Assembly (NCBI GenBank): GCA_001724265.1 | Contig: MEDY01000137.1 | Span: 1-64,000 of the forward strand | Source: Rhizaria sp. SCN 62-66 | Lineage: Eukaryota | Reading direction: 5' to 3' | Length of the DNA: 64,000 nt | In this document: positions 316-26,199 of the stretch, in pieces | Layout of the letters: each line of letters starts with the position of its first letter | How positions within the stretch are numbered: position 1 is the first letter of the stretch | Notes under the pieces: generated by a model | Told to the model about the DNA's origin: nothing | Seen by the model: the letters and a program-made list of their open reading frames with translations, nothing else | Databases searched by the model: none | Position numbers and translations under genes: made by a program

Positions 316-990
316 ATGGTGGACTGCTTTAATCGGCTCTTTTCTAAGGGCAATGACCAGGTTACCAAGCCCAAGAGGGGTTGCTCCGGTGAAAACTGTG
401 TTTACTTCTACTGCAATGAGCACCCCGTCCCGCTCTGTCCATACGTCCGTAAAGGTCTGTGTGAGGGTCTGAACGCTGCCTCTGCTGCTTGCGCCTTTCG
501 TCATGTGAATGTTTTTTCGGCTTGTTACAAGAACACCCTCCGTAGCGCTTGCGACATCTCAGGCTCTCGCTTCTGCCATTACATTCATCAAGATGATCCT
601 TATTTCAAGAAGAAGAGGAGTGCCGAGCACTCACATCATAAAGCCAAGACTGCCAGCATGGGGGCACGTAACAAGCCAGCGTCCGCTCCTGAGCACAGCA
701 ACCAAGAGCAAGGCCAGGTCCTTGCTTTTGTCAACCCAAGTTCTACAGGTGCGACAAAGGGCTCCACGACGATCGCGCCGGGTCGCCGCACTCCGCCGAT
801 GAATCCGCATGAGCCTGCTAAGAATGGCGCCGCCGGTAAGGATCCCGCTCCCGCACTCGGGGTTCGTGTAAGGGTCGATCGGGTCAGTACCATGGCCGAC
901 AGGGGCGAGTCCCCGCTCGCCACCGTAATGGCCCTGATTTTTCTTGGAAGCGTCATTTTAGGTACACTTCTGCTGGGGCAACGCGTGTGA
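316..990 (+). CDS. Orphan protein with CCCH-like zinc-finger motifs and a C-terminal hydrophobic (tail-anchor-like) helix
   Basis: Uninterrupted ORF, ATG 316 to TGA 990. Motifs CPYVRKGLC-x9-CAFRH and CYKNTLRSAC-x7-CHYIH. Ends in LATVMALIFLGSVILGTLLLG. The last 45 codons are homologous to the antisense strand of SAS-4 exon 2. Confidence 0.55.
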   Translation: MVDCFNRLFSKGNDQVTKPKRGCSGENCVYFYCNEHPVPLCPYVRKGLCEGLNAASAACAFRHVNVFSACYKNTLRSACDISGSRFCHYIHQDDPYFKKKRSAEHSHHKAKTASMGARNKPASAPEHSNQEQGQVLAFVNPSSTGATKGSTTIAPGRRTPPMNPHEPAKNGAAGKDPAPALGVRVRVDRVSTMADRGESPLATVMALIFLGSVILGTLLLGQRV

Positions 991-1278
991 GTGACTGCGA
1001 GTGTCCAACGAGCCCTTGGCAGCCTCATCATTGAGATGACCATGTGCAGCATAGTGACTGTGGGTAGCCGCAAAGTTATTGCTCGCGTTCGCAGTCGCAT
1101 TCGTGTTGTTGCTAGTGCTGCTAGGGCCAGCAAACGGGGCGCTCGCGGGAGCGGGCACGGGCGCGGGCAGCGTTAAGCAGAAGCTGCAGGCGCTGCGCAA
1201 GCGACAGCAGCAGCGGCAGTCGGCGCCTGAGCTGGTGATCGCCGCCGACGCAGAGACAAAGTCGAGGCTCTCGCCATA
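856..1278. repeat. Inverted partial duplicate of SAS-4 exon 2 (source 3586-4017) with an internal re-inverted 76-bp block
   Basis: 856-1143 matches the reverse complement of 3721-4017. 1144-1219 is a direct copy of 3645-3720 with 1 mismatch. 1220-1278 matches the reverse complement of 3586-3644. Confidence 0.95.
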
Positions 1279-2120
1279 CTCTTTGCTAGAATCTTACGAG
1301 TAATGATTCCCTCACGAGTACGGAGACGCACATTCAACTCCTCATTTGCAAAGCTATAGACGCATCCACAAAAGAAGATAACCAGATTGCGAGCAGAAGA
1401 AACCTCAGTAAATGTAATGTTGTTGAAGTTAGTGGAAATCACATCATCACTGTCCAGAAGCCGTAAGATGAGAGTTGGCCGAAATCGGCTCCGGAGGCAC
1501 TTATCTCGGGCGTAACTCTTTCCTATGGAAGTCGTTTTAAGCCACTCAAATTGTATATCAAAGCGAGTCGAGCCCTGTATAGTGCTATTTCGTGATTGCT
1601 TGCGCGCAGTTTGAATTTGATGGGCGAATTCGATGGGCGTAGCTAGATCTGAAAAGGCGTCAAAATTCGGATTGCTCTGTAGGCCTTGGTGAAAAAATAA
1701 AAACATATGTTTGTAAATACAAAAGAGATCACACACTAATATAGGCTCCTTTTTTTCGAAACACTTTCATTGTAAAAATCTGCAATGTGCCGAAGTTGGG
1801 CTGCTCCTAGAATTTCGTTTCGAAGCCCCTCCAAAGCCGGCTTGCCACGCACACCAGCGGCTTTTTTCGGCCCTTGTCGCAGTCAAAACAGCAACGACTC
1901 TTCTCTTGGCTGCTTGTTCAGGATTCAAAATTACACGTCATATTATCGTCAACTAGTTGTATTAAGGACTTATCGATTAGGATACGAACTAAAATATAGT
2001 TACCGTTTTCAACTATTCTCTGTGTCACGTCTAACACTCTACACGACTCGTCTTGTCACTGCCTTCTCCCACAGCTTTTCCTTCCTCCGTTCCTCAGCTT
2101 CCTTCCGCACTGTAAGCCAC

Positions 2121-5100
2121 ATGGACGATGAGATTATTCGCCCCGGCGTTGGTGGTACGTAGTGGACATATGAACATACCCGGCAAACTTAATATCACTC
2201 TAGCAGCTACATGATATATCCCGTAGTCCTACTTGCCACTCCACTTGTTTGAATCCTTCCTTACTGCTTCTCTCTGCCCTTTCTCGATGTCGCGCACTGG
2301 CCTCGTCTGCCACACAGGTGCTCACGGGCCCCAGTCGTTCAGCGAGCTCCTGGACCGCCAGCTCAGCGGCCGCCGCGGCAGCGCAGCCACGGCTCAACCG
2401 CAGCCGCAGCCGGCACTGACGTCACCCTACGGTGCTCCCGTGCACAGCAACAACAGCAACAACAATCATGCGTACTACAGCCATAGCGTGAGCGCTGGCG
2501 CTGCTGCCGGGACCCGTGCTGGTGCGACTGTGACATCAGCCGCCGGTGACGACGACGACGGCGAGTTTGATTTCCCTAGTGCTGCCGCCGCTGCTCCTGC
2601 GCACTCTGCTCACTCTGCTCACTACAACGCTGTCGCGAGTGCTGCTGCAGGCGTCGCTGTAGGGGCTGAGGGTGGCGAGAGCATTTACGGCCCTCATGAC
2701 GACTCTGGCGCCAGTAACACTCACGTTCATCCCCACAGCAACAACACCTACGGCGGCTATAAGGACGACAACCACAACAACCACAACAACCACAACTATA
2801 ATAAGTATGCAAGCACGGGCGCCGACGCCGACGCTTACACTGGGTACGCGAGTACCTACACCGCTCACGGCCCCACTCACAACGCGCACGATGCCGGCAA
2901 CGATAACTACTACGGTGGGGATCACACCGATGCCGCCACTGCTTCTGGCCCTGGTGCTGCTGAGGCTGCTCACGGTTACTCTGCTCACGGGCGTTTGGCG
3001 GACGTGGAGATGTCGCAGAGCGGCATGCTCAAAGCGCACCGCTTCTACCCTCCTGCCAACGCGAATCCTAGCAGTCAGATGTCTGCGGAGACCAGTGACG
3101 CCGTCAGCAGCGCTGTAACTGAGCCCGGTCTAAGGGGCAGCAGCGGGCCGCATGTAAGTGCCAGTGTAAGGGGTGGCTCCGGCGGTCCTGCTTGGGCCGA
3201 TGACGGCGACGCGTTCGACAACCACAATCACAACTACGCCAACGCGGCTGCTGCCTATAACGGCGCTTACACCGGCGACGGCGCCGGCGCGTATCCAACC
3301 CAGGTCAGCGCTGGCGCTTACAATAACTATGCAGAGTCAGCCGACTTCGTGTCGAACCCCTACCATGGTACTTACAACAAACAGGGCGACCCTTACACTG
3401 CTGATGACGCATACGGCGCAAGCAACGCTGCTATTCATACTGCTGCTGCTGCTGCTGCCCCAGTCTCCGCCGCTCTGTATGCCCAAAACTACGGTCATAA
3501 CAACAACAACAACAACGGCGCTGGTGCAGGTGCAGGTTTCGGCGACAACGCCAGCGGCAGCGAGCTCGGCGGCCTCAGCGGTTACTATGGCGAGAGCCTT
3601 GATTCTGTCTCTGCGTCGGCGGCGATCACCAGCTCAGGCGCCGGCGCGGGAGCGGGCACGGGCGCGGGCAGCGTTAAGCAGAAGCTGCAGGCGCTGCGCA
3701 AGCGGCAGCAGCAGCGGCAGAGCGCCCCGTTTGCTGGCCCTAGCAGCAGCAGCACTAGCAACAACACGAATGCGACTGCGAACGCGAGCAATAACTTTGC
3801 GGCTACCCACAGTCACTATGCTGCCCACGGTCACCTCGATGCTGAGGCTGCCGAGGGCTCGTTGGACGCTCACAGTCACTCACACGTGTTCCCCCAGCAG
3901 AACGACTACACTTACCCTGGCACTTACAACAATAACCAGGGCCCTTATGCTGGCGAGCAGGGCTTTTACCCTGGCGGCCAAGGTACTTACTCGAGCGACC
4001 CTTACACGAACCCTGAGAACGACCACCACTACAACGGCGAAACGGGTACTTACGCCAACGAGGGTACTTACATCCCTGGCCACGTCCCTTACAACCCCGA
4101 GCCGGTCCCCGGACCGCCTCCTCCCCACAATAGCAACTCGCACCCCGACAACGCGTATGGTCCTGCAATGAGTAGTAACCCTTCTATCAACGGCGCGTAC
4201 GGCCAGCTTGCCCACAGTCACCCCTCTCACGGTCACTCTGCCCACGGTCACGCTGCCCACGGCCGCGAGCTCAACGCGTGGGAAAAGGACGAGGAACGGC
4301 CTGTTAAGCCCGCCACGGCGCCGCCGCAGGTGCTCTACGGGGGTGGCCTAACTTTGGGCGCGAACGACGAGGACGCGGAAGACGACGTGTACGGTGACAA
4401 GTACGACACTGAGCACTCTCATCCTCCTGCTCCCGCTGCTGTTGCTGCCGTGAACAGCGTTAGCAAGCCTCCGTACGCTTACAGTACTCGTTTCGACGAC
4501 GAGGGTCACGACATTCGAGACGAAAGCGGCTACGGCAACCCTCACACAACAAACGCTGACGCCGACGCTGACTCTGATGCTGCGTCGTCCTCGTTAGTTT
4601 CTCACTACTTCAACAGCGGCAGTGCTCATGCCAACACCGGCAAACCCCCTCGTCGCCCCGCCCCATCGCCGTCTAACTTTAACAATAACAACAATAATAG
4701 CACTCCTTCTAGCGGCAGCGGCAGCGGCAGCGGCAGCGGCAGCGGCAGCAGAAGCTCCAGCGTGGTCCGTGGCCGCATCCGCGTGCCCGCGTCAACCGCT
4801 TCCTCCCGCGCCGCCGCCGCTGCCGCGGCCGCGGCCCGCAGCAGCAGCAGGCCGCGCGCCGGCGTGGAAGGTAAGCCGCCGCGCGCGGAAAGCAGGTCGC
4901 GCATCGTGGCCACTGGCGGCGGCGGCCTGAAGCTGGTTTCGCCCGACGACCGCGCCGACGACGAGGACGGCTCCGCCGGCGCGAGCGCAGCCGAGGTGGC
5001 CGCGGTCGTCGCCGCGCTGCCCGCCGAGCTGCGGAGCAAGTACATGCAGCTGGATGGCGAGGTGAAACGCGTGGAGAAGGAGGCGCGCGCTCTGCGGCGG

Positions 5101-6710
5101 CTGCGGCTCGAGCAGCAGCAGGAGCTGACGCACATGAAAGCCGAGTCCGAGCGGCTTAAGCTCAAGCTCGCGCAACAGGAGGATGCGTTCAAGGCCAAGG
5201 AGGCAGCGCAACATCGCAAGCTTAAGGCGGAGCGCGCCGAGCTGCACAAACAGACGCAGGCGGTGCTGCAGACGCCTGACCGGCGCGATCGCGAGACGAT
5301 CGACGAGCTACGCGCACTCGTCGACGAGTACAAGAGGGAGCTTAAGGACCGCGAGGCGCGCAACAAGACCGAAAAGAGCTCTCTGCGCGCGCAGATCGAC
5401 CGGTTGACTGTGAGCAACGATACGCTCAAGGAGGAGCTGCGCGCGAGCGAGAGCGCGCGCCTCGACGCCGAGGCCGGTTTCCATCGCAAGCTGGCCGAGC
5501 TGACCGCGAGCGTCGAGCGCGTGAAGCTGGAGGCGCGCGAGAAAACCAACGAGGCCGTGCGCGGCACGGTCGCGGTGCCCAGCGCGGCTTTCACGCTGAA
5601 CGCGAGCAGCAGCAGTGCTGCCGCGGAGGAAATTAAGCCGCGTGCTGCGGAGGCTAAGCCGCCGCACGGGAAGAGCTATGCTGTGAGTTCCAGCACGAGC
5701 GCTAGTGCGAAGTCTAAGAGTGGCGCCAGTACTGCGGCGCAGTCTAAGGGTGCAGGCAATGCGAGTACACCTGCTGTGGGCCGTGGGCCAGTCCAGCTGC
5801 CCCCGACTCCGCAAAGTCAGGCCGCGTCCGCTCTAAGTCAGGCCGCGCCGTCGTCGTCGCAGGCCAGCTTCTTCGGCCCCGCCGCCGTGGCCGCCGCCGC
5901 CGCGGCCGCGGTGACCCCCGGCCCCGGCTCGCTGATCCCGCCGCTGCACCAGCTGCTCGGCGACGCCGTGCTCGTCGAGACCGTGGCGCGCGCCGAGGAC
6001 AAGGTCGAGCTCAAGTACAGCGACGGGACTCGCGTCGGTAAGTTTGCACGCATATCTGAGACATCATGTTTAGCATATTCACAACACATATCTTTTCAGC
6101 GAAGCTTATTTTAACTATATTTCGGTATATTTTTGTATCACGTCGCATATTCGCTCTACAACTCATCTTCACTTCAAATCACATGTTGCTGTTACCTTTT
6201 TTTTAGTTGCGTTTCCGAATGGCGCGCGCAAGTGCGTGTGGCGCACGGGCCACACGCGCGCCGACTTCCCCCACGGCGACTGGAAGGAGACGCACCCGGA
6301 TGGCCGCGTGGTCTACTACTACCACTCGGCGCACACGCTCCACACCACATACCCCACCGGCGGTACGTCTTGCTGACTTAATGAACCTGAGCACTACGAA
6401 CCTTAACTGACACAGTCGCGATCTGTCGCTTGTATTTTCACTTTTAATTGATTTTACATACGTTTTACGAAGAATGACATGTCATAACGTCTTTCAATTT
6501 CCTTTATGATTTACTAATGCGGTATGTTATCTTGTTTTGCCCTTCTTTTGTTTCTTAGTGCAAGAGTACCAATTCGGCGAGTCTCAGACCGAGACCCACT
6601 ACCCCGACGGCCGCAAAGAGATTGTGTTTGCTGATGGCGCGCGCAAGTCAGTCGCCGCCAACGGGCAAACGACGGCGACGCTGCCGGACGGACGCGTTGT
6701 GCGCTCCTAA
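2121..6710 (+). CDS. SAS4: Centriole assembly protein SAS-4/CPAP (CENP-J); exons 2121-2154, 2318-6037, 6207-6362, 6559-6710
   Basis: N-terminal IRPGVGG..SFSELLDRQL resembles the PN2-3 motif. Central coiled coil. Spliced C-terminus gives TCP10/G-box repeats (VAFPNGARK, HPDGRVVYYY, ETHYPDGRKEIVFADG). Splice phases are consistent; ends in TAA. Confidence 0.88.
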
Positions 6711-25376: not shown

Positions 25377-26150
25377 GCAGCAGCAGCCGCGGAGGCTAAG
25401 GGGGTACTTACATCGATGCGACCACCGCTAGCACTCGCATTCGCATTACTTGCGCTTGCACGTGCAGAGCTAGAGCTACTGTTCGTCGCGTTCACGCCCA
25501 GGACATCGACCCCCGGCGGCGGCGGCGGCGGCGCCGCGCTACGCCCCTGCTGCCTCAGCACCGCGGCGACGGCGCTGTTGCGCAGCGCGAGCGCGTCGGC
25601 GGTCGCGTGCAGCACGCCCTGCCAGCGCGAGCACACGATGACGCGGTCGCCGGCTGCCGCCGCGGTCTCCAGCAGGCACAGCAGCGCCCAGAGCTTGCTA
25701 CCCTCGCGCGCCGCGGCTAGTGTGGGGATGCACACCGCGCAGGCCGGGTCGGCGAAGGGCTGGGAGAGCGGCGTCAGCGGCTGGGAGTGCAGCGGCGTGC
25801 CGCGCCAGTCGCCGTCAAGCAGCGACAGCTCGGCCTGGTCGGCCTCATCGCTGCCGTCGGTGAAGCTGCTCGGCGTTGCTTGGCCCGGCGGGCTGCTGAA
25901 GTTAGGCCGCGTGGGGAGCTTGCGGCGGCCGTCGCTGGGGTGCGGCCAACCCGGTGGCAGCGGCATGTCAGCCATGAGTAGAGAGCGGATGTACACGTTG
26001 GGATGGAAGCCGAGCATCGCGGACATAGCGTATAAAGCGAGTGCGTTGGTCGACCCGTGGCGCATCGGCAGTTCATCGTCGTCACCGTCTCTGTTTTTCG
26101 CGTTGTCAGCAGCACCACTGCCTTCAGTGACGCCACTTGTCGTCCAGGGG

Positions 26151-26199
<49 letters not shown>

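Follow-up and report, generated by a model that had tools for sequence, protein, structure and literature searches.

The window (by which we mean the whole 64 kb stretch of DNA analysed) is nuclear DNA of a GC-rich, intron-bearing eukaryote and, besides the open-reading frame of interest here, encodes CK2 beta, GAS8, RPL22e and a SAS-4/CPAP-like protein. Three introns in the window are confirmed by Pfam-supported flanking exons, these are 160–200 nt long and AT-rich, begin with the donors G/GTAAGT, G/GTACGT and G/GTACGG, and end in a T-rich tract followed by AG. Six of the nine Pfam-supported ORFs examined close with TGA, which we therefore take to be a genuine stop codon in the window. At the 3' end of the SAS-4/CPAP-like gene, the exon at 6510–6707 matches the Tcp10_C domain (G-box; PF07202; E = 2.2e-10, 40.4 bits against a Pfam cut-off of 36), and from order, strand and intron signals we infer that this exon and the large ORF at 2227–6114 belong to one gene. 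Upstream of it lies an ORF (316–990) whose C-terminal end derives from a duplicated piece of the same large exon. The features of the locus are as follows:

316..855, plus strand: N-terminal 180 codons of the ORF at 316–990, not derived from SAS-4, with three Cys/His clusters followed by a basic Pro/Ala-rich linker
856..990, plus strand: the tail, being the last 44 codons and the TGA of the same ORF, antisense of SAS-4 4017–3880
1173..1736, minus strand: convergent ORF of 187 aa (from the ORF list), whose last 35 codons lie inside the duplicate
2227..about 6707, plus strand: SAS-4/CPAP-like gene, consisting of a large exon (ORF 2227–6114, from the ORF list) and two further exons
3586..4017, plus strand: source segment of the duplicate, inside the large SAS-4/CPAP exon

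The N-terminal part of the ORF has real, frame-specific coding statistics. Its codon-usage log-odds over 316–855 is 0.173 per codon and is negative in the other five frames; for scale, true in-frame windows of 180 codons score 0.229 ± 0.098, and the maximum among 250 out-of-frame windows is 0.081. A stop-free run of 238 codons such as the one found here is also rare in shuffled sequence (P = 0.002). Regular-expression matching places the three Cys/His clusters at aa 23–36 (C-x4-C-x4-C-x2-H), 41–63 (C-x7-C-x9-C-x3-H) and 70–91 (C-x8-C-x7-C-x3-H). The canonical CCCH finger is spaced C-x7-8-C-x4-5-C-x3-H, and the "CCCH-like" label given to the protein in the preliminary description consequently holds as a loose pattern, but neither in spacing nor as a match to the zf-CCCH profile. 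In Pfam at E ≤ 10, no family was returned for the whole ORF, for its N-terminal 180 aa or for its one relative. This relative, P0001, was the sole match to the N-terminal 180 aa among 1.84 billion representatives; it carries a 21-residue insertion and 9 substitutions over 40 aligned N-terminal positions, and shows no difference from aa 40 onward. A homologue search with the whole ORF likewise gave P0001 only. The differences between the two are mostly amino-acid changing, P0001 nonetheless retains the frame and every Cys and His, and the intervening indels are in frame. Paralogs or orthologs of the N-terminal part that lack the tail had been proposed as a check on its origin, but this sole relative has the identical tail. 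The GC content at third codon positions (GC3) of the ORF is 0.58, against 0.7–0.88 in the supported genes.

The gene status of the convergent minus-strand ORF is doubtful. Its codon score is borderline (0.084), its GC3 is 0.43 against the same 0.7–0.88, and searches of Pfam, PDB and Atlas gave no match, the sole database match being the ORF itself. Suggestions that it encodes a roadblock-like or adaptor sigma-like protein were dropped as guesses which the searches did not support. The duplicate occupies the spacer between these two orphan ORFs, upstream of SAS-4.

A rearranged copy of a SAS-4 exon

Positions 856–1278 are a copy of SAS-4 exon sequence 3586–4017 (blastn, E = 9e-105), and a blastn search of the 64 kb for further copies of this segment found none. 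The copy is not collinear with its source, its segments run inverted (856–1143), direct (1144–1219) and inverted again (1221–1278). The preliminary description had counted about 13 substitutions in the untranslated part, 991–1278, and had missed the flip; we find 12/287 mismatches (13 with the ambiguous base at 1220) and a 6-nt deletion, so that the number is right, the count being valid only when 1144–1219 is read in direct orientation. Beyond position 1048 the copy is composed of three segments:

1049..1143, plus strand: inverted segment, young or converted; reverse complement of 3821–3721, 0/95 mismatches
1144..1219, plus strand: flipped-back direct segment; copy of 3645–3720, 1/76 mismatches, 99% identity (repeat search, blastn)
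1221..1278, plus strand: last inverted segment and right end of the duplicate; reverse complement of 3643–3586

The 6-nt deletion lies within the first of these, in a GCT repeat. The direct segment is flanked by short GC-rich microhomology of the GGCGC type, and the last segment has 3/58 mismatches, all of them within 1259–1264. Distributed by segment, the untranslated mismatches thus number eight in 991–1048, none in 1049–1143, one in 1144–1219 and three in 1221–1278. Compared with shuffled sequences, no homology extends past the ends of the duplicate, either beyond 1278 (P = 0.09) or to the left of 856 (P = 0.79). The direction of copying follows from the coding state of the two loci: the SAS-4 sense frame scores as coding over 3880–4017 (+0.415), whilst in the copy it is interrupted by a stop and by the internal flip, SAS-4 is therefore the source and 856–1278 the copy.

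The tail of the ORF had been described as the antisense translation of SAS-4 4017–3880, and this was borne out in exact codon-on-codon register, in which ORF codon position 1 corresponds to SAS-4 sense position 3. The two share a TGA, as claimed, the stop codon at 988–990 pairing with a sense TCA at 3880–3882; past this TGA, the frame of the ORF is open from 991 to 1176. The numbers originally reported for the tail (about 30 substitutions in 135 nt plus the loss of a codon, and an amino-acid change in 23 of 26 altered codons) were reproduced on recounting: there are 30/135 mismatches and a 3-nt deletion after 965, 26 of the 45 codons differ and 23 of these 26 change the amino acid. The origin of the tail by antisense capture of a duplicated SAS-4 exon is thus supported.

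The hydrophobic C-terminus and its possible place in the protein

The tail contains a single stretch resembling a membrane helix:

916..978, plus strand: transmembrane-like stretch, aa 201–221 of 224, from the Kyte-Doolittle scale and an AF2 helix

We scored transmembrane likeness by the Kyte-Doolittle (KD) scale only. The best 19-residue KD mean is 2.39 in the tail and 2.23 in the parent antisense; the hydrophobicity of the tail is mostly inherited from the parent antisense. When A is the second base of a sense codon (Tyr, Asn, Gln, Asp, Glu, His), the antisense codon has T there (Val, Leu, Ile, Met, Phe), so that the antisense of a hydrophilic segment rich in Tyr and Asn is hydrophobic. The SAS-4 segment has many Tyr, Asn, Gln, Gly and Pro residues and its antisense many Val, Leu, Ile and Arg, which is why the parent antisense was already very hydrophobic. 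In this respect, the locus resembles the hydropathic complementarity of sense and antisense codons, a subject with its own review (PMC2206014), the parent antisense reaching a KD mean of that height unaided, although the literature on that subject concerns peptide recognition and not gene origin. It differs also in that here Pro codons (CCT) gave Arg codons (AGG), which had to go for an uninterrupted hydrophobic stretch.

Both Arg residues in the hydrophobic stretch have indeed gone, and the codon comparison confirms the earlier observation that they became Met and Ile. Two events account for both losses, an AGG to ATG substitution and the adjacent GGG to TTT change. The longest run lacking all of D, E, K, R and H is 8 residues long in the parent antisense and 24 in the tail, where it stops 3 residues before the stop codon. 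An AF2 model computed from a two-sequence alignment has a mean pLDDT of 40, with residues 1–196 below 50, and its sole confident part is a helix at 200–221 (block pLDDT 79–86). Over aa 1–180, the best 19-residue KD mean is 0.91. A single predicted hydrophobic segment of about 20 residues, no more than about 30 residues from the C-terminus, with neither a signal peptide nor another transmembrane segment predicted elsewhere, is the arrangement expected of the tail-anchored class, and it is plausible that the product of the ORF would be a young, chimeric tail-anchor candidate.

It may be, however, that the tail lies outside the protein, either because the transcript is spliced at 836/837 or because the ORF is not a working gene, and that 856–990 is intron, UTR or spacer which decays neutrally and is open by chance. 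We regard this as unlikely, though to be taken seriously. A donor-like G/GTAAGG stands at 836/837, 19 nt before the copy, a T-rich tract with AG follows at 953–960, and both match the donor and end patterns of the confirmed introns; this T-rich tract owes several of its bases to derived T's that also account for Phe, Leu and Ile codons. The intron so delimited would, however, be 124 nt long and GC-rich, unlike the three confirmed introns with their greater length and AT-rich composition. The codon-usage score of the tail (−0.004) is below 98% of true 44-codon windows and typical of antisense windows, 31.5% of which score at least as high. Nor is the open frame evidence of maintenance, since 65% of neutrally simulated sequences stay open (13082/20000). 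The standing of the ORF as a whole can be argued both ways: it is an orphan with only one near-identical variant among all the representatives searched, its GC3 is low, and the 9 differences in 40 N-terminal positions between the variants give no sign of strong constraint, yet over the N-terminal part the coding signal is clear and specific to one frame, and neither variant has lost a Cys/His position, the indels being in frame. No spliced contig was seen among the RNA contigs, though in an RNA run with no contig at all over the ORF: the poly-A run X1 gave contigs at 1144–1310, 1873–2142 and 2276–2400 and none on 316–1143, and run X3 gave none. Missing cover proves nothing, and the contigs carry no strand information and may include DNA carry-over.

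Divergence along the copy and the case for selection

The preliminary description held that the antisense sequence had been recruited and then rapidly optimised by selection, on the grounds that the translated part of the duplicate is far more diverged than the untranslated part. Mismatches to the parent are distributed along the copy at no fewer than three levels of divergence, as follows:

878..965, plus strand: most diverged core, 26/88 mismatches (29.5%)
856..877 and 966..1048, plus strand: older flanks, 12/105 mismatches (11.4%)
991..1048, plus strand: untranslated continuation of the old part, 8/58 mismatches
1049..1278, plus strand: young distal part, 4/229 mismatches (1.7%)

A likelihood scan puts the best single change-point of divergence after position 1045 (support interval 1045–1054), and moving it to the stop codon (990) costs 6.07 log-likelihood units. 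Divergence in the tail is not significantly different from that in the next 58 untranslated bases (30/135 vs. 8/58, p = 0.24), and the two are equal once changes no more than 2 nt apart are counted as one event (20 events in 135 nt vs. 8 in 58 nt, p = 1.0), whereas these 58 bases are significantly more diverged than the distal part (8/58 vs. 4/229, p = 0.0005). Because the break falls after 1045 and not at the stop, what was read as a contrast of coding with untranslated sequence instead sets an old proximal part against a distal part that is young or converted. The excess divergence is not limited to the coding part. A younger or converted distal part had been named beforehand as the pattern that would speak against selection, and it is the pattern found, with the break 55–58 nt past the stop codon. 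Of the original proposal, the antisense SAS-4 origin stands, and the argument for rapid optimisation by selection is unsupported, given the position of the identity break and an adjacent untranslated stretch that is equally diverged. More generally, an identity gradient inside a duplicate can arise from an age mosaic or from conversion, and should be read with that in mind.

Signals of another kind remain in the tail, and on these would rest the view that positive selection drove the antisense tail into a functional anchor, the coding part diverging faster as a result. We consider this view quite improbable. In the frame of the ORF, pairwise NG86 comparison with the present SAS-4 antisense, in which changes are unpolarised and no outgroup enters, gives an omega of 2.24 (dN 0.327, dS 0.146); the excess over 1 is not significant (Fisher p = 0.11). 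When 30 random substitutions are simulated, the observed share of residue-changing codons is reached with P = 0.07 and the nonsynonymous count with P = 0.06. The same differences read in the SAS-4 sense frame give an omega of 0.89, and the dS of the tail matches the mismatch rate in the neighbouring 58 untranslated bases. Exact-antisense frames invert the codon positions, so that a high apparent dN/dS in such a frame can be interpreted only with an outgroup and a neutral baseline from nearby sequence.

The hydrophobic run and the codon usage point in the same direction as omega. A run of at least 24 residues without charge or His is reached in 1.8% of neutral simulations (P = 0.018) and a generic transmembrane criterion in 5.6% (P = 0.056), in tests that are post hoc, the tail having been chosen for its membrane-helix look, and that take the present parent as ancestor and a uniform mutation spectrum. 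Similarly, the codon score has shifted toward genic usage, from −0.229 in the parent antisense to its present value, further than in 96% of the simulations made under the same assumptions (P = 0.04), but still leaves the tail below nearly all true coding windows. The core at 878–965 is more diverged than the older flanks (p = 0.002), a comparison in which clustered changes are counted singly. The core contains three such clusters, at 905–910, at 956–958 (GGG to TTT) and at 964–967 together with the 3-nt deletion, and 11 of the 30 tail changes fall in them, each cluster being perhaps one event. C-terminal transmembrane domains have, in addition, been reported in young yeast proteins (PMC11384008 and PMC7005711). 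Omega, transmembrane likeness and the codon-usage shift are three weak signals which are not independent of one another, they are suggestive, and compatible with some selection or with changes on the parent side. Optimisation of the tail by selection is unproven.

The spectrum of changes leaves the same two possibilities. With the parent state taken as ancestral, 7 of the 8 changes in 991–1048 run from GC to AT; the tail has 14 AT to GC and 10 GC to AT changes, against 1 and 7 in 991–1048 (p = 0.04), and this difference could reflect selection, or the placement of part of the changes on the SAS-4 side. A search with SAS-4 residues 380–640 for relatives that could polarise the changes gave only a 100% identical ENA protein, P0002. 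RIP-like mutation of the copy was ruled out, as transitions make up only 13 of the 30 changes. The loss of all three antisense GTAAGT motifs was likewise discarded as evidence, having a chance of ~0.47 at this divergence.

A narrower role for selection can be conceived, in which the antisense strand of a disordered Tyr/Asn/Gln-rich exon was already close to transmembrane competence, a micro-duplication fused it to a cytosolic Cys/His-rich orphan protein, the two Arg losses made a functional anchor, and selection now shields the tail from the conversion that made the rest of the copy uniform; the conversion boundary would then stop 55–58 nt short of the stop codon because tracts overwriting the tail are selected against. 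The position of the boundary could reflect such selection, but we hold this fuller account to be decidedly improbable. Were it true, the locus would be a dated case in which the capture of antisense exon sequence turned a soluble protein, stepwise, into a membrane-anchored one.

An assembler chimera of SAS-4 reads is an extremely improbable origin of the copy or of its young distal part, for although the contig from run X2, which spans 855/856, follows the copy over 805–1278 and then passes into SAS-4-type flank, a sign that assembly graphs cross between the loci, and although 1221–1258 shares 38 nt with the parent, longer than a 31-mer, the 38 copy-specific differences in 856–1048 are impossible to derive from SAS-4 reads, the 1511-nt metagenome contig L001 is 100% identical to 764–2274 (the sole metagenome locus matched) through both junctions and the flipped segment, and the X1 contig at 1144–1310, which spans 1278/1279, has no differences, including at the copy-specific positions 1204 and 1259–1264 and at the right junction. 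As the structure is carried by L001 and by the X1 and X2 contigs, it is not an assembly slip of the window alone; the records behind L001 and X1 may come from related samples, and their independence is not assured. The X2 contig was also considered as a hybrid allele, which was rejected, the shared 38-nt stretch being sufficient to explain it.

A proposed history and its parallels

Our preferred reading, to which we give a probability of about 0.5, is that the tail would be part of a mosaic antisense copy of two ages, with clustered mutations, in which selection is possible but not required, and that it would provide the ORF with a candidate tail anchor. From the large SAS-4/CPAP exon, 423 nt were probably copied in inverted orientation into a low-GC spacer ~2.3 kb upstream, where they would have landed directly behind a lineage-specific, Cys/His-rich ORF. 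The ORF would then have read through the copy in the antisense register, which is open for 44 codons to the first antisense stop; such frames tend to be open because GC-rich sense codons seldom yield antisense stops. The present copy is a mosaic, its old proximal part (856–1048) being ~20% diverged from the parent and its young distal part (1049–1278) ~2%. A later repair event or template switch may have been primed in the shared homology near 1045–1054, and fresh parental sequence would then have been copied with two strand switches at microhomology. The combination of a mosaic and a flip would point to replication template switching, or to a repair or conversion tract from the parent. The two Arg-removing events would finally have completed a C-terminus that resembles a tail anchor. 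If expressed unspliced, the product may, from general knowledge of this class, be a tail-anchored protein inserted post-translationally, with its Cys/His domain facing the cytosol; alternatively, it may be a substrate of the quality control that acts on hydrophobic C-termini.

The locus fits several known kinds of genetic novelty, namely the partial-duplication chimera, coding on the non-ancestral strand and the young C-terminal transmembrane domain. When a gene is partly duplicated, the fragment can be captured into a chimeric gene and translated in a different frame or from the other strand (overprinting). As in such chimeras, a duplicated coding fragment in a non-ancestral frame here supplies a terminus and a stop codon; the present case is distinguished by its exact antisense register, by a piece of just 423 nt taken from no further than 2.3 kb, by the mosaic of two ages and by the internal flip. 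Complex inverted duplications are attributed to fork stalling or microhomology-mediated break-induced replication. The order of inverted, direct and inverted segments, with junctions at short GC-rich microhomology, resembles these, on a scale here of tens to hundreds of bases, but a single event of this type would be insufficient to make the copy, because its two parts differ tenfold in divergence.

A parallel for the end product is in yeast, where C-terminal transmembrane domains are described as a feature common to young de novo proteins (PMC11384008; PMC7005711). Both cases would lead from new coding sequence without protein ancestry to a hydrophobic C-terminal helix, and here Phe, Leu and Ile codons arose through gains of T (GGG to TTT, G to T). 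They differ in that the antisense of a duplicated exon was fused to an existing ORF here, in place of T-rich intergenic DNA. For the alternative fate of the product, the BAG6 pathway offers a model, which is reported to act on hydrophobic C-terminal extensions that arise from translation of noncoding sequence (10.1101/2022.07.20.500724; PMC10364623). The tail would be a similar extension from formerly noncoding sequence, although that surveillance was demonstrated in animals.

If the tail is translated and inserted, a membrane anchor would have been gained in a few steps from non-ancestral coding material. As a general rule, were the reading true, the antisense of hydrophilic, middle-A-rich disordered regions would constitute a reservoir of near-transmembrane sequence. 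It is rare that source, copy and intermediate states can all be read within 4 kb, as they can here. Sequence near-identical to the locus is also present in runs labelled activated sludge metagenome.

Copying of the duplicate and an apparently mosaic 5' end

Within the otherwise inverted duplicate of SAS-4/CPAP exon sequence (856-1278), a 76-nt segment at 1144-1219 matches 3645-3720 in direct orientation with 99% identity, and both of its junctions carry GGCGC-type microhomology; judged from the sequence, this combination suggests template switching while the duplicate was copied. A second variant of the 5' end of the orphan ORF at 316-990 is present in the same data, seen at 293-454 and in P0001, the database protein that is the sole relative of this ORF among 1.84 billion representatives searched. 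The variant carries 21 inserted residues, lacks 3 nt at 317 and has nine residues changed; from amino acid 40 to the stop the two are identical. From its pattern of differences this end looks like another mosaic, with alleles, strains or conversion as possible sources.

Splice-like motifs and the frame beyond the TGA

Read in antisense, ACT-TAC (Thr-Tyr) gives GTAAGT, and the parental antisense sequence of the tail region (868-965) has this motif in perfect form at three places. None of the three survives in the copy, and a GTAAGG is retained at 868-873. By our own arithmetic, the probability of losing all three at the observed divergence is ~0.47, the loss is therefore not significant. After the TGA at 988-990, the frame stays open for a further 61 codons (991-1176), and an extension rich in Arg and Val would result from readthrough. 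TGA is the closing codon in six of the nine Pfam-supported ORFs examined, and is thus a normal stop here.

Neighbouring features and the SAS-4 5' end

Downstream of the tail, the following features were recorded:

1173-1736 (-), convergent orphan ORF of 187 codons, the last 35 inside the duplicate
1297-1292 (-), donor-like GTAAGA at the locus of this ORF
1302-1449, match to a 136-nt contig from sequencing run X2, at ~93% identity
1448/1449, point where two contigs depart from the window; AG on the minus strand

Family, PDB and Atlas searches with the minus-strand ORF returned no match, its sole database match being itself. The depth of the X2 contig is roughly 7-10x that of its surroundings, and this excess, together with the divergence of contigs at the AG, may reflect either a related sequence of higher abundance or a splice boundary.

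At the 5' end of SAS-4 (2121-2317), a likely first intron would run from a GTACGT donor at 2155 to an AG at 2316-2317. A contig of the poly-A RNA library X1 begins inside this putative intron, at 2276, and an in-frame ATG lies within it at 2287, which makes the 5' gene model uncertain. Repeated 17-nt blastn matches to 3500-3516 also brought up a long trinucleotide repeat at 26150-26199, within an SNF2-like ORF.
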